In this document: piece after piece, positions 1,481 through 64,000 of the stretch | How the letters are laid out: every line of letters starts with the position of its first letter | How positions within the stretch are numbered: the first letter of the stretch is position 1 | NCBI RefSeq assembly: GCF_044704955.1 | Contig: NC_091980.1 | Coordinates: 129,766,001-129,830,000 of the forward strand | Source of the DNA: Pristiophorus japonicus | Taxonomy: Eukaryota | Length of the DNA: 64,000 nucleotides | Reading direction: 5' to 3' | Notes under the pieces: generated by a model | What the model was told of the DNA's origin: nothing | Database searches by the model: none | The model's input: the letters and a program-made list of their open reading frames with translations, nothing else | Made by a program: the position numbers and the translations under genes

Positions 1481-1546
1481 AGCTTTGCTCAATGTTACCT
1501 TTGTAATTTGATAAATTTTTTACTTTGAAAAAAATAAAACATTAAG

Positions 1547-5833
<4,287 letters not shown>

Positions 5834-9689: not shown

Positions 9690-9928
9690 TCAATGATGTT
9701 CATTCTTCAAAGTTCATGACTGGCGCTGGGAGTCATGGCCCCTCCTCCCTTTACTTGATTGGTGCTCTGACAGAGGCTGCAACTTGTGATTGGGTATTGA
9801 GGAATGTCACTCACAGCTAGGCTGTCCCCCCCTGGATTATCCAGCAGTGTAAAGACAGGAGTTTGAAATTAGCTAACTCTCAGCTTCTTGCTTCAATAAG
9901 GCTTAGAATTTTGGAAAAGCAAATTAGG
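9690..9928 (+). promoter_or_regulatory. Type-A promoter/5'UTR of g2 with degenerate TATA (TGTAAAGA 9848-9855) and IRE relic (9885-9916)
   Basis: Two ATTGG boxes; TTCTTGCTTCAA-TAAGGC-TTAGAA matches the 5' arm of vertebrate ferritin IREs but lacks the CAGTGN loop. Confidence 0.65.
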
Positions 9929-13421
<3,493 letters not shown>

Positions 13422-16550: not shown

Positions 16551-16907
16551 GCTCTGATTGGCTCTGGGCTTCAGCCCCACCCCGCCCCCCCCCCAAAAAA
16601 AAAGCAAGAATATGGTGTTGAGATAGAGGATCAGCCATGATCAAATTGAATGATGGTGCAGACTCTAGGGGCCGAATGACCTACGACTGCTCCTATTTTT
16701 CTATGTTTTCTTTGTTAATTGGTAACTGGATTCAAGGAAGATTCCTGATTGGCTCTCAGGGATTGTCAATCATCATTGGTGATGTCATTCCTTCTTTGAA
16801 TTCAGGCTGTCCCAGTCGTATAAATACAGGAGCTTGTGTGAGAAAGGGTCAGTGTTAGAATGTGGCAGGTGATTGTGAGAAATAATAGTATAATATAGAT
16901 AGTGAAG
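16550..16907 (+). promoter_or_regulatory. Type-B promoter of g3 (multiple ATTGG boxes, TGATGTCA, TATAAATA 16819-16826)
   Basis: Aligns with 22530-22757 and 63775-63994; interrupted by a CR1 3' fragment (~16595-16710) that g4 and g6 lack. Confidence 0.7.
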
Positions 16908-19437
<2,530 letters not shown>

Positions 19438-22529: not shown

Positions 22530-22760
22530 GCTCTGATTGGCTCTGGGTCTCACTCCCTTCCCCACACACCCTCTCCTTTTTAATTGGTGCTTGAATTCAG
22601 GGAAGATTCCTGACTGGCTCTCAGGGATTGTCAATCATCATTGGTCATGTCACTCCTTGTTCGAATGTCGGCTGTTCCAGTAGTATAAATACAGGAGCTT
22701 GTGTGAGATAGTGTTAGTGCCAGAATTGTGTAGGTGATAGTATAAATATAGATAGTGATG
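22530..22760 (+). promoter_or_regulatory. Type-B promoter of g4 (ATTGG boxes, TATAAATA 22684-22691)
   Basis: Aligns with the g3 and g6 promoters; no IRE hairpin in the short 5'UTR. Confidence 0.7.
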
Positions 22761-27300
<4,540 letters not shown>

Positions 27301-43480: not shown

Positions 43481-46039
43481 ATTGCAAATGTAGAAGATTT
43501 GTTCACAACAGTGACAGGTGGTCAGATCTTCTCAAAGTTAGATCTCAAAAATGCCCACTTACAACTGGAGCTAGATGAGGAGGCCAAGTCATGTTTGACT
43601 CTAAGTACTCATCTAGGCCTGTATCAATTTAATAGGCTACTATTTGGATTGTCTTCCACCCCTGCCATTTCCAAGGAGTGATGAACAAGATTTTGCAAGG
43701 TATTGAAGGGGTAGTATGTTATTTAGATGACATATTAATTCCAGCAACTAACAGGCAAATCCATACTAACGTATTGAATGAAGTGCTCAACTGGTTAGAG
43801 AAGCACAGAGTATGAGTGACTGCTCGCAAGTGTGTTATTTCAAAGCTCAGTGGAGTACTTACGGCACAGAACAGACAAAGATGGGTTACATCCAACCAAG
43901 GCAAAGGTGGATGCAATTAGAAATGCTCCCCTCCCAAGAATGTCACTGAACTTCGATCATTTTTGCGTCTTTTGAACTATTATGAGAAGTTCCTCACAAA
44001 TTGGGCTATGATGTTACATCCACTGAATGAACTGTTGAAGAAACAGGTCCAGTGGAAGTGGTCAGAAGAATGCGATACAGCATTCAAGGAGTGTAAAAAC
44101 CAGTTGATAGGGAGCTCCCTGTTTGTTCACTATAACGTATCTAAAGAGATCAAGTTAGCGTGTGACGCCTCTCTGTATGGAGTTGGGACAGTGATCTCTC
44201 ATGTACTACATAGTGGGGAGGAGAAACCAAATGATTTTGCTTCACGTAGTCTCAGTGCCAGTGAGCGTAATAATGTGCAACTTGAATGGGAAGTTTTGGC
44301 ATTAATTTTTGGGGTGAAGAAGTTCCACAAATACCTGTATGGTCTTAAGTTTAGCATCATTATGGACCATAAGCCCCTGACAGCAATCCTCCATCCAAAA
44401 TCCTCCATTGCAACCTTAGCTGTAGCCTGAATGCAGAGATGGGCTTTGATTCTGTCAGCATAAACATATGACATTGAGTACAGATGATCAGCTGATCACA
44501 GTAATGCTGATGCTATGTCCAGTTTGCCATCACCATCACAAGTTGCACCCAATAGGGAAGAAGTGTTGTATTTTTCATATATTGATGAACTGGCAATCAC
44601 AGCTGAAGAGATTGGTAGAGCAACCAAACATAATCCAGTTGTGTCAATGGTGTATGGTTACATTGCAAATAGCTGGCCAAACCATATATCAGAGAAAGAC
44701 ATTCATCCATACTTTGTTTGTCGGAATGAATTATCAGTGGATAAAGAGTGTATCATGTGGGGTGCAATTTGGTTATACCAAATAAATTCAGGTCCAAAAT
44801 TATTAGGAGATCGTCATACCCCCAGCACTTGGGAATATTCTTGACCAAGATTTTTGCATACAATTACTTATGGTGGCCAGGTCTAGATAAAGATATAGAG
44901 TACATCATTAGTCAGTGTACAATATGTCAATCGGTAAGCAAGAAACCACCATCAGTACCATTACAGCCATGGAAATGACCTCCCAGGTTGTGGCATATTG
45001 ATTTTGCTGAGCTAGAAGGACAGTAATTGTTCATTGTGATTGATAGCCATTCAAAGTAAAACACGAGATAATTTGCGAAGATTACTTTCTTCATTTGGCC
45101 TCCCAGAAGAAATTGGTCACAATTTTGTTCAAAAGAATTTGCACAGTTCACGAGCAAAAGTTTTGTGAAACATACCAAAGTTCCACCATACCACCCTGCT
45201 TCAAATGGTGCAGCAGAGGGCACTGTACAAATTGAAAACATGCCCTTATCAAACAAAAGTTGGATCCAAATCCAAAGAAACAACATTTGTCATTGGACCA
45301 CAAATTGGCTAATTTTCTAATTACGTATCGTAATACTCCTAGTACAGCTACTTGTAGAACACCAGCAGAGTTTTTCTCAAACAACAGCTATGAACTAGGT
45401 CCTCGTTTTTGAAGGCAAACTTGGCACAGTCCGTAGAAGAGAAACAATTAAGACAAAAAGAGAATCATGATAGAGGTAGAGTAAAAGAGAGAAGGGTGAA
45501 ATTAAATCAGAATGTTAAAGTGAAGAACCATCATCATAAATGGTTATAGTGGTTACCGGGAAGAATGGTAAAGCTATGTGATCCTCGCACATATTTGGTC
45601 AAGATGTTTGATTATGGACAGGTTATGTTTGTTCATATTGATCATATGTTACTTACAGATAGGGAAGAAGTTGGAATGATTTGATTATTTCTGACTCATC
45701 AGTTAGTCTATTACAAGTACAGTACCAGTAGCATATCCTACATCAAATGTACTAGAAACGAATCCAAGAAAAGTCAGAATTTAAATCCGAGTCCGAGACA
45801 GGCAGACAAACAGCCTGAAGTTGTAGAGAGTTCAAATGTAGATCAAGGGCATTCCTTGGAGGAAAAATCTCCTCAGGATCAGATCAGCCTAGAATGAATC
45901 TGTGTTCGACACCGTGTTTGGAAAGTTCGAGAGCGAAGGTAGCCTCTTCGAAACAGAGAACAAGTGGTAAAGTTTGATTAGTAAATATGGCAAAATAAGT
46001 TCATATCTTTTGTTATATATAACCATGCAAGTTATGTAT

Positions 46040-48964: not shown

Positions 48965-49204
48965 AACAATGATGCTCATTCTTCAAAGTTCATGACTGGC
49001 TCTGGGAGTCATGGCCCCGCCTCCCTTCACTTGATTGGTGCTCTGACAGAGGCTGCAACTTGTGATTGGGTATTGAGGAATGTCACTCACAGCTGGGCGG
49101 TCCCGCCCTGGATTATCCAGCAGTATAAATACAGGAGTTTGGAATTAACTAGTTCCCAGCTTCTTGCTTCAACCAGGCTCAGATTTTTGGAAAAGCAAAT
49201 TAGG
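48965..49204 (+). promoter_or_regulatory. Type-A promoter/5'UTR of g5 (ATTGG x2, GC boxes, TATAAATA 49124-49131, IRE relic 49161-49192)
   Basis: Near-identical to the g2 promoter; TTCTTGCTTCAA-CCAGGC-TCAGA. Confidence 0.7.
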
Positions 49205-49709
49205 ATGGCTTCTCAAGTGTGTCAGCACTACCACAAGGACTGTGAGGCTGCTGTTAACCAGCAGGTCAATATGGAGCTCTGTTCCTCCTATGTTTATCTC
49301 TCCATGGTGAGTCTTATATTTCTGAGCACTTCACAATGGAACCTCTGCAATGTGAATTTACTATATTCTGTGCACCCCTCACTTGATGCACAGTGAATTC
49401 ATTTGTTAAATCTATACTATAATAGAAATGATCACCTTGTGTATTCTTTAACAAACTGCCTCTCTGTTCCATGCAGTACCTGAGCCATATTTGGAGAATC
49501 ATAATGACTTTCTTTCCTGGGCTCTTGTGAGCTTGTAGTTGAAGTTTATTTGGAATACACCCTGCATCCTATCCTCATTTCTAAATCACTCCATGGCCTT
49601 TCCCTACCTTGCTTTTTGCAATGAGGGGAATCAGTCTTCAAATTAGAACCAGACCATTTAGGAGGGAAGTCGGGAAGCAATTTTTCTCATTTGTGGTAGA
49701 CTGGAACAT

Positions 49710-49744
<35 letters not shown>

Positions 49745-50319
49745 CCTGCTTCCCACATTCTACCCACCCAAGGTTGTGATTGCCTGGAAAAGGTTTTAGT
49801 TGGGTAAGGGTATCAAGGAATTAGAATATAACAAATAGGAGTCGGCCATTTGGCTGATCTTCTCCCTCAATGCCACCTTCTGGCACTATCCCCATAGACC
49901 ATAATTTATTTCATTCCCAAAAATCTATTGACCTCTGTCTTGAAAATACTCAACGACTGAGTATCCACAGTCCTCTGGGGTAGAGAATTCCATAAATCAT
50001 CACCCTCTGAGTGAAGAAATTTCAACTCCTCTCAGTCTTTAATGGCCAACACCTTTATTCTCAGACTGTAACCCCCTGGTTCTAGATTTCCCCAGTTAGG
50101 GCAAACATTATTTCTGCATTCACCCTGTCAAGCCCCTTAAGAATTTTGTATAATTAGATTTGCACCTCATTCTACTAAACTCTAGAACATTGGCCCAGTC
50201 TATTCAATCTCTCTACATAGAGCCATCTCCTCATTCCAGCAACAAGTTGAGTGAACCTTTGTTCCACCTCTAAGGCAAGTATGTCCTTTGTTTGGTCAGG
50301 AAACCAGAACTGTACACAG

Positions 50320-51885
50320 GGTATTAAGAGATGGCGGAAGTTATAGCAGATGCATTTGTTATAATCTACCAAAATTCTCTGGACTCTGGGGAGGTACCAT
50401 CGGATTGGAAAGCAGCTAATGCAACGCCTCTGTTTTTTAAAAAAAGGGCAGACAAAAGGCAGATAACTATAGGCCGGTTAGTTTAACATCTGTAGTGGTG
50501 AAAATGCTTTAAGCTATCACCTAAGGAAGAAATAGCGGGACATCTAGATAGGCATAGTGCAATCAAGCAGATGCAACATGGATTCATGAAGGGGAAATCA
50601 TGTTTAACTAATTTACTGGAATTCTTTGAGGATATAAACAAGCATGGTGGATAGAGGTGTACTGATGGATGTGGTGTATTTAGATTTCCAAAAGGCATTC
50701 TATAAGGTGCCACACAAAAGGTTACTGCAGAAGATAAAGGTACGCGGAGTCAGAGGAAGTGTATTAGCATGGATAGAGAATTGGCTGGCGAATAGAAAGC
50801 AGAGAGTCGGGATAAATGGGTCCTTTTCGGATTGGAAATCGGTGGTTAGTGGTGTGCCATAGGATCGGTGCTGGGACCACAACTGTTTACAAATACATAG
50901 ATGACCTGGAAGAGGGGACAGAGGGTAGTGTAACAAAATTTGCAGATGAGACAAAGATTATTGGAAAAGCGGATTGTGTAGAGGACACCGAGAAGCTGCA
51001 AAGAGATTTAGATAGGTTAAGTGAATGGGCTAAGGTTTGGCAGATGGAATGCAATGTTGGAAAATGTGAGGTCATCCACCTTTTGGGGATGAGGGGGGGC
51101 TGGGGAAGAAACAGTAAAAGGAACTATTATTTGAATGGGGAGAAATTACAACATACTGTGGTGCAGAGGGACCTGGGGGTCCTTGTGCATGAATCCCAAA
51201 AAGTTAGTTTGCAGTTGCAGCAGGTTCAGGAAGGCAAATGGAATGTTGGTTTTCATTGCGAGAGGGATGGAGTACAAAAGCAGGGAGGTCCTGCTGCAAA
51301 TGTACAGGGTATTGGTGAGCCTGCACCTGGAGTACTGCCTGCAGTTTTGGTCACCTTACTTAAGGAAGGATATACTAGCTTTGGAGGGGGTACAGAGACG
51401 ATTCAATAGGCTGATTCTGGAGATGAGGGGGTTACCTTATAATGGTAGATTGAGTAGACTGGGTCTTTACTTGTTGGAGTTCAGAAGGATGAGGGGTGAT
51501 CTTATAGAAATATTTAAAATAATGAAAGGGATAGACAAGATAGAGGCAGAGAGGTTGTTTCCACTGGTCGGGGAGACTAGAACTAGGGGGCACGGCCTCA
51601 AAATACGGGTGAGCCAATTTAAAAACTGAGTTGAGAAGGAATTTCTTCTCCCAGAAGGTTGTGAATCTGTGGAATTCTCTGCCCAGGGAAGCAGTTGAGG
51701 CTAGCTCATTGAATGTAATCAAAGCACAGATAGATAGATTTTTAACCAATAAGGGAATTGAGGGTTACAGGGAGCGGGTGGGTAAGTGGAGCTGAGTCCA
51801 CGGCCAGATCAGCCATGATCTTGTTGAATGGCGGAGCAGGCTCGAGGGGCTAGATGGCCTACTCCTGTTCCTAATTCTTATATTA
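50320..51885 (+). mobile_element. Relatively intact CR1 3' half in g5 intron 1
   Basis: ORFs 50644, 50816 and 51135 give VVYLDFQKAF, KFADETK, LQRDLDRLSEWAKVWQM, LEGVQRRF; absent from g2 intron 1 (empty site near 11050). Confidence 0.9.
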
Positions 51886-53838
51886 TGTATTTTAGGTGTG
51901 TCCTCACCAATCCCTGTATAATTGTAGCAAGACTTCTTTACTCAACATTTGTTACAAAGGAATTAGATTTCAACATACCATTTGCTTTCCTAATTGTTTG
52001 GTGGATAAATGGAGTTAAGCTGCAAATCTAACCAAATTGAATGGTGGAACAGGTTTGAGGGGCTTAATGGCCTACTCCTGTTCCTAATGCTCTTGACCTC
52101 CTCGCTTTAGGTACCAGTTTTTGCACTTCTGTCTTTTCTCAAACTCCCTTTTGATTTTATTGGTGGTAAAGCCTTCAGCCATGTTTCCCCCAATTTGGTG
52201 GAACTCTCCCTCAACCCCTCTGCTTCCCCTGACCTCAAACTCTGAGGGGTGGTAATGGTTGTCTGCTGGAATGCCTTGATATTTAGTGATGTAGGTGCAA
52301 AATGAATGCTGCTTAGTTTTGGTTCCACAGGATGAATGTAGCCAGTAACACTTGGGCCAGATGTACTATGTGAATTATGCACTGTGACTAAATCGCTACT
52401 TTACTTTACTTCTAGTTCCAGTAGTGCCCCTTGGCTAGCCTGTACACAATAGATTGGTTTCAATAAACCATGATTGCAGTGGTACTGTTAATAATCTTTC
52501 ACTAATTTCTAAACCTATAATTGCATATAGGGTTCAAGATTAAGGATATGGTTTTGAGCTTGTTCTAACAAAGCTGAATTGATAACCATGGGATACTACA
52601 GCACTGAAGGAGGCCATTTGGCCCATCATGCCTGTGCTGACTGTTGGTTGGAGCTATCCAACTCGTCTCGCTCCCCTGCTTGATCTCATAGCCCTGCAGA
52701 TTTGTCCGTATTAAGTCTTTGTTTTAAATATTGCCATTTAATTTACTTCCACCATCCTTTCAAGCTGCCCATGCATTTAAAAAAAAAAAAAAAAAAGGTT
52801 ACCTCTGGTCCTCATCCTTTCGCCAATCACTTTTGATTTTCCATTAGCCAGTTTCCCTATTGCTAGGGGATTATTCATTCCACCACATTAGTGGAGTCGG
52901 TAGGCTGGTGCTAGCTTGTGTAATATTGTACATGGAAATTCAGGGAGACTTTGAATTATTTGAAGGAAGCAAAATTGAGTTTGGCTTTATGTACAATAGT
53001 GACAATAATAGATCTGCCATGTGATACCCAACCAATTTTCTGATCTCTCCGCAGTCCTTCTACTTTGATCAGGATGATGATGCCCTGCGTCACTTTGCTG
53101 AGTTCTTCAAGGAGCAGTCACATGAGGAACGTGAGCATGCTGAGAAACTGATGGAATTCCAGAATCGGTGTGGTGGCTGAATCATCTTGGTGGATGTCAA
53201 GGTTTGGCTCAATAAATGAGGTGCCTTCTGTCTGGCTCCCCTTAGTCTGATTGCTCCCAATACATTCTAAAGCAGTTGGTTCCAATTTACAGCACAGAAA
53301 CCAGCCATTCAGACAAACTGGTCTCTGCCAGTGATCAGGCTCCAAACATCTGCTCCCACCTTGCTTTATCTAGCAACAGATCCTTCTATTTCTTTTTACC
53401 TCATGTACTTATTTAGTTTCCCCTTAAAACCATCTGCTATTCACCTTCAATTTGACTCCAGTGGTTGATGGCTTAATGCAGTAATTCTATATTCTAACAC
53501 ATTGGTTCATGGTATCCTAGACTTCTGATATATATTTTCATCCCTAATTTCCTTCAATATTTGTGTTTTGTTTAATCCATTGTCAAGGAACTGACTTTCT
53601 TCAGAAAGCAGAGCAGGATGAGTGGAGCAATGGTTTGGAGGTGATGCAGAGAGCTCTGCAGATGGAGAAGAATGTGAACCAGAGTCTGCTGGATCGGCAC
53701 AAACTCTCCACTGGGAGTACTGACCCTCATGTAAGTACCTCATGTAGGTTTCTGGATAAGTTGGAGGTAGTGGAACCTTGCTATCCTTGAGCCGTTTCAA
53801 AAGATCTCTGCCCAAGAGCTTTATGTTGGGGTGGGTTT

Positions 53839-54068
53839 TGTCATGTATGTAACAACACTGCAATACTGAATATATGTAAAATGCGCACCTTGACCACAGT
53901 GGGTGAACTTGTCGGAGACATTCCTCACCTGGTCATCCAGGTATATAAAGGGAGGTCCCATGCAGAGTCATCACTACTTGTTCCTGTGATTAAAGGTTCA
54001 GGTCATGGAGTGGCCTTGTCCATATAATGTGCCTCGTGTGGATTTGTGGTATTGTGTAAGGATTTTCA
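53839..54068 (+). mobile_element. Solo LTR in g5 intron 3
   Basis: TGTCATG...TTTTCA flanked by GGGTTT direct repeats; internal gtatataaag and attaaa; absent from other copies. Confidence 0.75.
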
Positions 54069-54318
54069 GGGTTTTTCTGTGGGGGGGTGAGTGGGGTCGG
54101 AAAGGACAGGAGGTCGGTCTATTGTGGACATTGACTAGTACATGTGTCCCAGCAACTATTGTGCACAAGTTTAATCTAAATGATCCAGTAATTCCATTGA
54201 TTTCAATTGCACCACTTAACTCCTCCAGTTCAAGATGATTAACATCCAAACTCCTGAGGGGTAAGCTCCAATATTCCTTGATATCTGCTCTGTCTTAACT
54301 AGTTTCCCTTTTTCTTAG

Positions 54319-54456
<138 letters not shown>

Positions 54457-55401
54457 TGAGGAGAAAGTGACTGAAGCTTCTGTTCAGTACTCATGTTTAT
54501 ATAATTGTGTGTGAGACTCTGTCCTGTAGAGAATGTCAGCTTGTGTCTTTGTACAGGCTGTGATACCTGGGTTCTTGATGTGAAATGTAATTAACTGTAT
54601 AAAATGTTCAATAGTGCACTGGGTTGTCTTCTTGTAAATTTGAGTGGTTGCTTATCATGTAAACCAGATGTTAATATCAGTGAAGAATTACACTGGGCTG
54701 TGTAACAGCTTTTTTTTCTTCCTTTCCTTTTAGGTGTAAATCTAATTGATTGACCTAGGTATGTAGGGTTGCATGTTGAAGACCTAATTTCAATTCTGTT
54801 TATACTTTTTTGGGAGCAATTTGTCTTCATGCATTTCAATGATTATGTTGCAACCAGAGGTGAAGTGAGATGCTGTAATACTATCTTGCTGATTATATTA
54901 ACATTGTAAAATGTCTGAAGGCATTTTGCAAGAGTGTCACTAAATAAAATTTGAGTGATACAGGAATGATGACCAAACTTATGGTCAAACATGAAGGTTT
55001 TAAGGGAGTATCTTAGAGGAGGAATGAGGGAAGAGAATTTTAGGGGTGTGACATCTGGAGCTTGGGCCAAAGTAACTGTTTCCACTGGTAATAAGTAGTC
55101 TTGCTGCTATTTGCAGCAATGGTAACTCACTTTTACCTCCTCAATACAACAAACTCTCAATTGCTGTAATTTTGTTAAAACACAAGGAGAGTTTGCCAAT
55201 GAACTAGAGTAGAACTATTTCATTTCTAGGAACAATCCAAGTTGTTCCAGTGGGACACACTGCAGGTCTTTCACGGAACCAAACTCCATATTGTTGCTGC
55301 TGACTTGCTGGTCGGGTTTGTGGATACAGTAGCACAGAATGACTTTGGTGAGAGACCAGCAATGTCTGAGCGCATTGGGGGAGCTCCCTGAATTTATGGT
55401 A

Positions 55402-57214: not shown

Positions 57215-60200
57215 TGTTATGTATGGAGAAAGAGTCAGACTGAACACTGAGCTCAAAGTAAAGTGTGACCTTTGTCTTTTATTGCAGGTCTCCAGAGTGC
57301 TTCTCCAACTGTGAGGCCTCCTTAAATACCTGTGCTCCCAAGGGATTGTGGAATCCCTTGGGACTCCAGGGGATGAGCCCTCTGGTGGTTGTACAGAGTA
57401 TAGACAAGTTTACATATATAACAACACCCCCCTAAAGTTAACAGTGTAACTAGAAGGTGAGTCGATCTGGGACCCTTCTTGCCCTGGTTGATCGTCTCGG
57501 TGTGAATGCCGGTATTAGCGAATCATCTATTGGGCCCTCGCTGGACTGCTCTGCCGCTGGCCTTGCTGGGCTGCCTGGTGTGGTGGGTCCTGCTTGCCTT
57601 CTGTGGATGATGGGTTCTGCTTCGTGGCCAACCGTGGTGCCAGTTGCCACTGTTGTGTATGTTGGGGGGTCAAAAAAGGTAGGGTCCAATGTGGGTTGCT
57701 CAGGTTAGTCCGTGAATCTGAGTTTGATTTGGTCCAAGTGTTTCCGGTGAAGGAGTCAATTTGAAAGTTTGACCGGCAACACCCTGCTCCCCTCTTTGAC
57801 CATGACAGTGCCGGGAAGCCACTTGGGACCTTGTCCATAATTCAATACAAATACAGGATCATTGATTTCAATCTCGCATGACACATTTGCACTATCATAC
57901 TTTATTGAAGCCGCCTGCTCTCTATCTGTTCATGTAGATCAGGGTGAACTAACGAGAGCCTTGTCTTAAGTGCTCTTTTCATGAGCAGTTCAGCAGGTGG
58001 GATCCCAGTGAGCGAGTGGGGTATCGCGCGGTAGCTAAGTAGGACTCAGGAGAGGCGAGTCTGCAGTGAGCTTTCCGTTACCCTCTTCAAGCCCTGCTTG
58101 ATGGTTTGCACTGCTCTCTCTGCCTGATCATTGGATGCTGGTTTAAACGGGGCAGATGTGACATGTTTGATCCCGTTACAGGTCATGAATTCTTTCAACT
58201 CAGCACTGGCAAAACATGGCCTGTTGTCGCTCACCAGGACATGGGGTAGGCCGTGTGTGGCAAACATGGCCTGCAGGCTTTCAGTAGTGGCAGCGGACAT
58301 ACTCGCCGACATTATATCACATTCAATCCACTTGGAGTACACACTCCAACCACAAAGAACATTTTACCCAAGAACGTGTACCCTAGACCACAGATTGGAG
58401 GGCCAAGACTATGAACTTAGCAGCGCCTCACTGGGTGCATTGCTTAACTGTGAGCATGTATTACATCTGTGCATGCAGGACTCTAAGTCCACATCGATAC
58501 CGGGCCACCACACATAGGATCTGGCTATCGCTTTCATCATTACGATGCCTGGGTGGGTACTGTGTAGGTCACTAATGAAGGTGTCTCTGCCCTTCCTGGG
58601 AACCACTACTCGACTGCCCCACAGAAGGCAGCCTGCCTGTATAGACATTTCATCTTTGCGCCACTGGAACGGCTTTATCTCTTCCTGCATTTCCACTGGG
58701 ACATTGGACCAGCTCCAGTGAAGCACACAGTTTTTCATGAGGGATAATAACAATGTGCTGAGACCCGGTAGGAAGTTACCAAAATAGTTCAGGAGTCCTA
58801 GAAATGACTGCAGCTCTGTCACGTTCTGTGGCCTCGATGCGTTCTCGATTGCCTCCACCTTCGAATTGGTGGGCCTGATGCCGTCCGCCGCGACCTTCCT
58901 CCCCAGGAACTCCACTTCAGGCACCAGGAAAACACACTTCGAACATTTTAACTTGAGCCCCACGCAGTTGAGTCCACTAAGAACCTCCTCCAGGTTCTGA
59001 AGATGCTCAACTGTATCCCGACCTGTAACCAAGATGTCGTCCTGGAAGACCACAGTGCGCGGGACCGACTTCAGTAAGCTTTCCATGTTTCTCTGGAATA
59101 TCGCCGCTGCTGATCAAATTCCAAGCGGGCATCTGTTATCAATGAAAAGACCTTTGTGCGTGTGGATGCAGATGAGGCCCTTCAATGATTCCTCCAGTTC
59201 CTGCATCACGTAGGCTGAAGTCAAATCCAGCTTCGTGAATGTCTTTCCTCCCGCCATCGTTGGAAAGAGGTCGCTGGCCTGTGGTAGCGGGTATTGGTCC
59301 TGCAGGGAGAAACGATTGATAGTTACTTTGTAATCACCACAGATTCTGATGGTGCCATCTCCCTTGAGGACTGGGACAATAGTACTGGCCCACTCATTGA
59401 ACTCGATAGGTGAAATGATGCCTTCTCTTTGCAGCCGGTCTAGCTCGATCTCTATCCTTTCTCTCACCATGTACGATACTGCTCTCGCCTTCTGATGGAT
59501 GGATCTGCACTTTTGCTCCTTGGAATTTCCCGATGCCTGGTTCGAACAGCGAAGGGAACTTGTTTAAGACCTGGGCACACGAAGTGTTGTCAGCGGCCGA
59601 TAGGGCTCGGACGTCGTTCCACTTCCAGCATATCTTTCCCAGCTAGTTCCTGCCGAGTAGCGTGGGACCATTGCCCGGTACCACCCAGAGTGATAGCTTG
59701 TGCCACGCTCCATCGTAGGAGACCTTTACGGTAGCACTGCCGATTATGGGAATCAATTTCTTTGTATAAGTTCTTAATTTTGTGCGAATTGGAGTTAAGA
59801 CTAGCCTTGAGACCGTGCTGCACCACAATTTTTCCAAAGTCTTTTTGCGCATGATGGACTGGCTCGCGCCTGTGTCCAACTCCATTGACACCGGGAGTTC
59901 ATTTAGTTCAACATTCAGCATTATCGGGGGACACTTTGTGGTGAATGTGTGCACCCCATGTACCTCTGCCACCTTGGTCTGAGGCTCTAGTTCGTCATAA
60001 TCCTCCGTGGATCTGTCCTCCTCTGCATCATGGTGGTTTGCAGGATTAACAGGATTTACAGCTCGCCTGCACATACGTTGGAGGTGCCGCATTGTTCCAC
60101 AGCCCTTGCAACTGTACCCTTTGAATTGGCATGAATGAAAACAATGATCACCCCCACAGCGCCAACAAGGTGTTAATGGCCTTGCATTCATCACCCTTAA

Positions 60201-61072
60201 TGGTGGACTCTGAGACATCTGCGGACGTGCAGCTGCAGGCATGTGTGACCTGCCCTGTACGTTGTGATTTGAAAACAACATCACTTTTTTCACAGTACTT
60301 GTAGCAACACTTGTGTGCTGAGAGATTTGCTTCGTATTGTCACTGGTGGCAATGAATGCCTGGGCTCTCGCTATGGCTTTACTCAAGGTTGGGGCCTCTA
60401 CAGTCAAAAGTTTGCGAAGTATGGTTTCGTGGCCAATGCCAAGTACGAAAAAGCCTCTGAGCATGTGCTCCAAATGTCCTTCAAATTCACAAAGTCCTGC
60501 AAGGCATCTTAGCTCGGTGACATAATTCGCTGCTTCCTGGCCTTCAGAACTTTTGCAGGTGTAGAACCGTTACCTCGCCCTTTGGGTTCAAATGCTCCCG
60601 GACCAGTGTGCACAAATCATCGTACGATTTCTTCGTGGGTTTCGCTGGAGTAAGCAGATTTTCATGAGGCCATATTTTGGTGCCCCACAGACAGTGAGGA
60701 GAATTGCCCTTCGTTTGGCAGCGTTCTGTTCTCCATTCAGCTCATTGGTTACGAAGTATTGATCGAGTCACTCCACAAAGGTTTCCCAATCATTTCTCTC
60801 CGAGAATTACTCAAGGCTGCCCACTGATTTCTGCATCTTTGGGTTGGCTATCTGTATCTCGTTGCCAGTTGTTATGTATGGAGAAAGAGTGAGACTGAGC
60901 TCAAAGTAAAGTGTGAACTTAGTCTTTTATTGCAGGTCTCCAGATCGCCTCTCCAACTTGTGAGGCCTCCTTAAATACCTGCGCTCACAAGGGATTATGG
61001 AATCCCTTGGGACTCCAGGGGATGAGCCCTCTGGTGGCTATACAGAGTATATACAAATTTACATATATAACA
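57215..61072 (-). mobile_element. Gypsy/Ty3 retrotransposon with both LTRs (degenerate gag-pol)
   Basis: LTRs 57215-57423 and 60870-61072 (TGTTATG...ATAACA); PBS tggcaacgag and PPT-like G run on the minus strand; flanks ACTTC/ACTTT; gag CCHC (CWRCGGDH..C), protease MELDTGASQS, RT (FTKLDLTSAY, VFQDDILV), integrase (LVSDN..F, PASN.QAERAV). Inserted into an L2 fragment (57190-57214 + 61073-61250). Confidence 0.93.
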
Positions 61073-63774: not shown

Positions 63775-63994
63775 CTCTGATTGGCTCTGGGCCTCAACCT
63801 CCAGCCCCTAAACCCCCTCTCCTTTGTTAATTGGTGCTTGGATTCAAGGGAGATTCCTGATTGGCTATCAGGGATTGTCAATCATCATTGGTGATGTCAT
63901 TCCGTGTGTGAATGCAGGCTGCCCCAGTAGTATAAATACAGGTGCATGTGAGAGAAAGGATTAGTTCTTGAATTGTGCAGTAATATAGATAGTC
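63775..63994 (+). promoter_or_regulatory. Type-B promoter of a sixth ferritin copy (g6)
   Basis: ATTGG at 63780, 63830, 63860, 63887; TGATGTCA; TATAAATA 63931-63938; aligns with the g3/g4 promoters. Confidence 0.75.
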
Positions 63995-64000
63995 ATGATG
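63995..64000 (+). CDS. Probable start (ATG ATG) of ferritin copy g6, cut by the window edge
   Basis: tatagatagtcATGATG matches g4 tatagatagtgATGATGgcctcc; the coding status of g6 cannot be seen. Confidence 0.6.

Follow-up and report, generated by a model that had tools for sequence, protein, structure and literature searches.

Probable remnants of an M-ferritin iron-responsive element in a shark ferritin array of about 300 genes, with IRP-independent translation predicted for the intact ones

The window, by which we mean the whole stretch of 64,000 nucleotides analyzed here, lies on contig 4 (129766001-129830000) of the 5.9-Gb genome of Pristiophorus japonicus and contains five complete ferritin genes and the beginning of another (g1 to g6), along with their promoters and with sequences resembling parts of an iron-responsive element (IRE), as follows.

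Positions 1503..1522, + strand: strongly decayed IRE relic of g1, type B, placed by alignment in register with the others and present in clearer form in type-B relatives
Positions 1547..5833, + strand: ferritin gene g1, intact, 176 codons; exons 1547-1648, 4465-4611, 5242-5367, 5678-5833
Positions 9848..9855, + strand: TATA position of g2, mutated to TGTAAAGA
Positions 9885..9908, + strand: IRE relic of g2, type A, reading TTCTTGC-TTCAA-TAAGGC-TTAGAA, with 6 mismatches in 20 letters when compared to the core of the M-ferritin IRE
Positions 9929..13421, + strand: ferritin gene g2, broken, with 2 nt missing at the start of exon 4; exons 9929-10030, 12236-12382, 12784-12909, 13268-13421
Positions 16850..16861, + strand: CAGTGT-TAGAAT at the predicted start site of g3; 2 of 12 letters differ, and 24 of 10000 shuffles are as good
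Positions 16908..19437, + strand: ferritin gene g3, with a leader of type C, broken, as exons 1 and 2 both contain stop codons
Positions 22761..27300, + strand: ferritin gene g4, type C leader, intact, with a TATA box at 22684 and without the 5'-arm relic
Positions 49124..49131, + strand: TATA box of g5, in a core promoter that aligns with that of the M gene
Positions 49161..49183, + strand: IRE relic of g5, type A, with the loop CCAGGC, reading TTCTTGC-TTCAA-CCAGGC-TCAGA, with 7 mismatches in 20 letters when compared to the core of the M IRE
Positions 49205..54474, + strand: ferritin gene g5, broken by a stop at codon 76
Positions 63931..64000, + strand: 5' end of g6, with a TATA box, a leader of type C, and the start codon at 63998; the gene extends past the window and is interrupted by a stop at codon 72

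The gene models agree with the initial annotation of this DNA in that g1 and g4 are intact, the other four genes being broken. Decayed retrotransposon reading frames, which to the eye resemble those of reverse transcriptase, integrase, and gag, are found between and inside the ferritin genes (44008-44844, 50816-51629, and 58046-60464).

As judged from exon matches, these genes are part of a tandem array of approximately 300 ferritin genes in both orientations, spanning 5.6 Mb of contig 4 (approximately 127.78-133.41 Mb). A pattern for exon 4 has 321 matches genome-wide, with 96 of the 100 matches listed falling inside this interval, and a pattern for exon 1 has 258. The array holds large, nearly identical duplicated blocks, one example being 129.04-129.22 versus 129.31-129.48 Mb. 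The leaders were sampled from 237 extracted 5' ends and from 16 of 20 further, previously missed regions (the other 4 being without exon 1 in the fetched stretch), amounting to 253 leaders from some 320 copies, with the remaining copies, about 70, covered by genome-wide searches, whose two patterns a divergent IRE would escape. The 237 5' ends fall into four leader types, P (n = 95), C (n = 57), B (n = 53), and A (n = 32). Type C possesses a different upstream promoter, with approximately 53% identity, and an upstream ATG is found within the final 55 nt ahead of the start codon in 41 of the 53 type B leaders, close to the predicted start site. Fusion of exons 1 and 2 was also noted in two array-type copies, one on contig 11 (L045:1965-2240) and one on contig 4, at 112.56 Mb (L044). 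The contig 11 copy extends into intron 2, and its TATA-like box is retained, suggesting that it is semi-processed or has lost intron 1 at the DNA level.

Vertebrate cytosolic ferritin is the textbook case of translational control by IRP, and the H (contig 14) and M (contig 19) ferritin genes of this same genome possess perfect IREs. It had been claimed that no array member carries a functional IRE, and the claim has been borne out well beyond the window. The IRE rules were applied through our own implementation of SIREs, following the available text of PMC2896125, with the 22 motifs of SIREs 3.0 (Table 2 in the available text of PMC12230718): none of the 253 array leaders, the 16 added ones included, match any of the motifs between -90 and +25, and the H and M controls are positive. 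Rfam, the other search proposed for the 5' leaders, returned no IRE for the window or for nine array-type loci, only unrelated sub-threshold matches, with the control found at 45.2 bits. Genome-wide, a ferritin-IRE pattern with one mismatch allowed has 27 matches and an arm-plus-loop-plus-start pattern has 21, none of either in the array, and two Rfam IRE models, with 82 and 87 candidates scored, gave no match there. The folds of the g2 and g5 leaders are not IRE-shaped (z of +0.5 and +0.6, versus -2.75 for the M and -3.30 for the H control). As to g1, g3, g4, and g6, described earlier as lacking an IRE-like hairpin, the description holds in that none of the six window leaders match the SIREs rules, and it needs amending for g1, which carries a decayed relic in register.

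Two sets of weaker candidates were considered and rejected. SIREs matches located 91-600 nt upstream are 10 in number, all weak, versus 12-16 in shuffles. An IRE-like core, C-AAGTT-CAGTGN-RACTT, is found in intron 1 of some type-P copies, approximately 120 nt before exon 2 (L050:1946-1965), and at 10969 and 50242 in the window, with 16 perfect matches to SIREs motif 1 among the loci examined. It is not accepted as a regulator, as it is intronic, broken in most copies, and without an Rfam match, and it is probably due to chance.

Two copies bear on the presence of a spliced upstream exon, the start sites themselves being predicted only. In a processed copy on contig 3 the four exons are joined, and a leader of 44 nt, starting inside the relic, runs directly into exon 1. 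The contig 11 copy is without intron 1, and its relic, with a paired upper stem, is continuous to the TATA-like box. No upstream exon is present in either.

What the leaders do carry is a recognizable part of an IRE. The letters reported for g2 and g5 are present as written, 29 nt past the TATA position in both genes, and the reading of them as a surviving 5' arm with a broken loop and 3' arm is confirmed, in that the arm is identical to that of the M gene, G16 is lost, and the upper stem is mismatched. In g2, the 5' arm and C8 are intact, the loop TAAGGC is devoid of G16 and U17, and the upper stem is mismatched. The 12-mer TTCTTGCTTCAA is the 5' arm of the species' own M-ferritin IRE, and within the window it occurs only at the g2 and g5 relics (the H gene has TTCCTGC). 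The relic had been assigned to type-A copies. It is indeed real, and yet its presence in types A, B, and P (169 of 237 copies) makes it array-wide rather than type-A-specific, and both carriers named, g2 and g5, are broken genes. The commonest form, TTGC-TTCAA-CAAAGT-TTAGA, compares with TTGC-TTCAA-CAGTGT-TTGAA in M, and its 4 mismatches are reached by 7 of 20000 shuffles. Among the 180 non-C leaders, 23 are at 4 and 46 at 5 differences from the 20-nt M IRE core (69 of 180 within 5).

Could such likeness have arisen by chance, from a pyrimidine-rich stretch beside the initiator? We consider this very improbable. It is true that the g1 relic alone is not significant, with 180 of 1000 shuffles being as good, that the protein tree does not resolve the ancestry, and that loosely scored local alignments of whole 600-nt regions do not rise above shuffles; the latter were uninformative and were set aside for focused alignments. 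However, none of the 237 upstream control windows come within 5 differences of the M IRE core, and in global alignments of the leaders from TATA to ATG with the M leader, four leaders (g5, another type A, and two of type P) beat all of 1000 dinucleotide shuffles, with 996 beaten by g2, 988 by one type B leader, and 820 by g1. Against the H leader, the same leaders are matched by 30-188 of 1000 shuffles, with a far lower score for types A and P, pointing to M over H. In a MAFFT alignment, three blocks, the TATA region, the IRE arm, and the leader end, follow in the same order as in the M leader, separated behind the relic upper stem by a gap of approximately 86 nt that includes the lower-stem GGAA strand, the placement of the gap being approximate. 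The highest score against the M leader belongs to type A (35.9 versus 32.4), which forms one clade in the leader tree (support 1.0), nested on a weak backbone. The core promoter of a further paralogue, X, is as close to that of the array as the M promoter is. In type C (57 of 237) the 5'-arm relic is missing, and in 8 of the 57 the predicted start site bears a likeness to the loop and 3' arm of an IRE. This may be a second relic or just an initiator, and likewise the CAGTGT-TAGAAT of g3 is possibly a loop-and-3'-arm remnant without its 5' arm, or merely an initiator, and is no IRE.

The state of the relic was assessed in 169 copies, the other 11 of the 180 being too decayed, interrupted, or mis-anchored to give a usable register. 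The determinants contacted by IRP, as listed in the available text of PMC8466369, are A15, G16, U17, C8, and a helix of five pairs. Several bases of the element persist in most relics (C8 in 145, C14 in 149, A15 in 164, and G18 in 147), and two are essentially gone, with G16 kept in none and U17 in 2. The apex, A15-G16-U17 in a working element, reads AAG in g2 and CAG in g5. The five-pair upper helix does not form, with pair 11-22 present in 23 of 169 relics, and while C8 is a C in both g2 and g5, its bulge depends on this very stem. The C14-G18 cross-loop pair is C-G in g5 and in 128 of 169 relics and U-G in g2. Repression of initiation by IRP is not possible without the AGU apex and the helix. 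Parsimony changes per site, counted on a tree built from 165 distinct leaders, are 6.7 for the relic, 7.1 for intron 1, 6.6 for the leader behind the relic, 4.5-4.8 for the promoter, and 3.0-3.9 for exon 1. The rate for the relic is thus intron-like and above those of the promoter and exon 1, giving no sign of selection on it.

These rates bear on the proposal that the remnant has been re-used, as a CTT-centered hairpin (TTTGTTG-CTT-CAACAAA), as a site to which IRP would bind weakly and in a non-canonical way, or as a downstream element of the core promoter. The commonest relic is a quasi-palindrome, and some copies fold at up to -9.8 kcal/mol; two of the hairpin pairs persist in nearly every copy (167-168 of 169), and the persistence of C8, C14, A15, and G18 (145-164 of 169) could be read in the same sense. 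The remaining five hairpin pairs, however, are kept in just 96-115 of 169 copies, the predicted folds vary by subfamily, the overall rate of change equals that of intron DNA, and no SIREs motif fits, making re-use improbable. The alternative hairpin as a conserved structure was rejected, being possible in some copies and not kept. Compared to the vertebrate ferritin 5'-UTR IRE (Rfam RF00037, IRE_I), the relic is alike in its position just behind the predicted cap, in its 5' arm, in C8 and mostly in C14, A15, and G18, and in the ordered homology to the M leader, and it is unlike in having no G16 or U17, in its mismatched upper stem and deleted 3' strand of the lower stem, in matching neither Rfam nor SIREs, and in showing no excess conservation.

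The proposed descent of the family from an IRE-bearing gene is likewise supported, and the parent may now be named as the M-type paralogue on contig 19, from the leader homology and the colinear alignment. A cluster of approximately 130 kb on contig 19 contains an L-like gene, M, a leader-bearing gene Y, X, and three damaged or partial array-type genes, with an IRE in M only. A protein tree, built by a quick method from 15 intact models (of 59) and 37 fetched proteins (of 98), unites array proteins from many sharks with those from a ray and from Callorhinchus in a chondrichthyan clade (SH-aLRT 93), and its basal forks do not settle a sister link between array and M. The M-like descent therefore rests on the leader homology and the gene order. 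The family is also expanded in other sharks, with parallel expansions in many genera and clusters of 138, 180, 127, and 69 proteins. The nearest named proteins are from sharks, and over their first 170 residues three of our intact models agree with named proteins of Pristiophorus japonicus. In Heptranchias, array-type proteins and a Y ortholog are recorded on contigs of equal length. The 21-30 leader-end letters displayed for four runs of other organisms, from relatives whose leaders are less than 80% alike, do not include the relic, and one of them resembled type C. For a second shark paralogue, P0079, no distinct gene was recognized in this genome among the 150 of 1406 candidates scored.

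Two members of the contig 19 cluster deserve mention on their own account. Ferritin Y (approximately 93.128-93.142 Mb; L126:9522 to L038:2733) contains introns and encodes a 31-residue, Arg-rich, acid-free N-terminal extension resembling a mitochondrial targeting leader, and its Heptranchias ortholog (P0087) is also leader-bearing. As mammalian FTMT is an intronless FTH1 retrogene, Y may be an independent mitochondrial ferritin. The L-like ferritin (93.189 Mb; L039:3326) is missing the ferroxidase ligands, and unlike in mammalian FTL, no IRE is found in its scanned region, nor is there one in X or Y.

The array genes themselves have four exons and encode the Pfam PF00210 domain. Gene models could be built for 132 of the 142 loci of sufficient length (95 short loci fall outside this count), of which 59 (approximately 45%) are intact and 73 broken, with none of the 4 type A copies examined being intact. 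Contigs from runs X1, X2, and X8, which derive from related organisms, lie mostly over exons and join them across introns that have GT..AG ends. The runs carry no RNA label on record, such joints could also come from processed copies, and summed contig depth was not used as a measure of expression. The residues that we take to be the ferroxidase ligands (human H numbering, with the positions anchored on structure matches) are nearly invariant, E27, Y34, E61, E62, H65, E107, and Q141 being present in 56, 56, 55, 56, 54, 56, and 56 of 56 intact copies, respectively. Two further positions set the family apart. One is a Met at residue 141, beside the ligand Gln141, shared by all 56 intact copies and by 125 of 129 fetched proteins of array type, in contrast to Ala in human H and to Ser or Asp in the frog subunits; this signature may alter iron oxidation. 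The other is the Arg23 position, with a Lys in all 56 intact copies and in 115 of 122 array-type proteins and an Arg in the species' own H, M, L, and X. Arg to Lys is a conservative change, and one normal subunit per cage is enough for NCOA4 targeting. Arg23 of FTH1 is needed for NCOA4 binding, as judged from R23A, Lys not having been tested there (available text of PMC4592949).

Is the loss of the IRE then real and devoid of adaptive meaning, the array having merely arisen through unequal crossing-over and being for the most part silent or dispensable, with storage left to the IRE-bearing H and M? The 73 broken copies of 132 modeled also fit a drift of copy number, 92 of 237 copies are without a clean TATA box, and the large blocks are near-identical, recent duplicates. 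This explanation nevertheless appears unlikely, given the invariant metal ligands and a pN/pS of 0.23 in 56 intact versus 0.40 in 24 broken copies, the parallel expansions across many shark genera, and the processed copies, which show transcription in the germ line. As judged from these substitution ratios, the intact copies are under purifying selection.

Ferritin paralogues outside the H/L pair are known from other animals, and the comparison helps define what is distinct here. FTMT and FTHL17 (in the available text of PMC7760355) are such paralogues, with mouse Fthl17 forming a cluster of six genes, and FTMT, according to the same text, is not under IRE/IRP control. However, FTMT is an intronless FTH1 retrogene, and the shark genes have four exons, a TATA promoter, and no targeting leader, the start codon being at the ferritin start, while FTHL17 has no ferroxidase activity, and the shark genes keep the ligands and number approximately 300. 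Another example is fthl27 of the hadal snailfish, also a tandemly multiplied heavy-chain-like gene proposed to be an oxidant buffer, though in a teleost and in 14 copies versus approximately 300, the term "iron-responsive" not appearing in the main text of the paper, as far as available (PMC10746142). The closest structures are the middle- or higher-subunit ferritins of amphibians and teleosts (PDB 1mfr, 1bg7, and 6lk9; E of approximately 1e-62 to 1e-64), which share the ferroxidase ligands. The array proteins differ from them in having Met in place of Ser or Asp, carry Lys at the position of Arg23, and form a separate chondrichthyan clade. The proteins of sharks and rays named "ferritin heavy chain B-like," "oocyte isoform-like," or "higher subunit-like" in NCBI and UniRef belong to the same family, with names assigned automatically, by similarity, and silent on leaders, IRE loss, and tissue. 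Thus an IRE-independent FTMT, small clusters, the 14-copy snailfish expansion, and the automatic shark annotation are already known. The full-text literature, as far as available, gives no account of a shark ferritin array or of IRE loss in it (subscription papers and supplements, a possible home of expansion lists, being largely outside this scope), and the array family is not described in the available text of PMC13007054, PMC6312339, PMC5568229, or PMC1488847.

Overall, we consider it quite probable that the motif is a decaying IRE remnant, likely from an M-type gene, and that the intact copies of the array of approximately 300 genes are translated, as predicted from their leaders, without IRP control. 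The initial annotation spoke of iron-independent ferritin synthesis, and this goes too far, as iron or oxidants could still act on transcription; IRP-independent is the safer term, and translation of the array copies would be so. In the scenario that we propose, a tandem duplicate within the M/L ferritin cluster would have lost approximately 86 nt behind the upper stem, with the 3' strand of the lower stem, as well as the loop bases G16 and U17, and would then have multiplied by birth-and-death, in this genome mainly on contig 4. Output would be set by transcription, through copy number and the conserved TATA promoter, resulting in a large stock of iron-oxidizing cages not waiting on a rise in cytosolic iron. 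The most likely use would be to sequester iron in bulk and to buffer oxidants, in a single tissue or a small number of them. As a further guess, having Lys instead of Arg at position 23 may slow the recycling driven by NCOA4. A broader proposal, which we put forward tentatively and regard as possible rather than probable, is that of an ancient, amplified class of shark and ray ferritins freed from both IRP (in synthesis) and NCOA4 (in recycling), a one-way iron sink built by gene dosage, in which types A, B, and P on the one hand and type C on the other perhaps lost opposite halves of the IRE independently.

If the main reading is true, regulatory escape would have preceded, and perhaps allowed, amplification by gene dosage. 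The shark would possess some 300 intron-containing, ferroxidase-complete ferritin genes with a remnant still traceable to the parent paralogue, and the array, as 169 natural copies of a decaying IRE, opens testable questions on iron storage in sharks. It is also an example of how automatic names such as "oocyte isoform-like" may mask a distinct family.

The IRE searches of this genome uncovered other elements as well. Four dispersed copies of the first 91-100 nt of the M leader (L002-L005; contigs 10, 12, 17, and 18) are 93-99% identical, each with a perfect IRE, and share a T-rich end site and no coding sequence, suggesting retroposition of a discrete, short 5' RNA; if transcribed, they could possibly be IRP decoys. 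On contig 6, two adjacent IRE_II matches are found at 264590205-264590348, as expected for the 3' UTR of a transferrin receptor.
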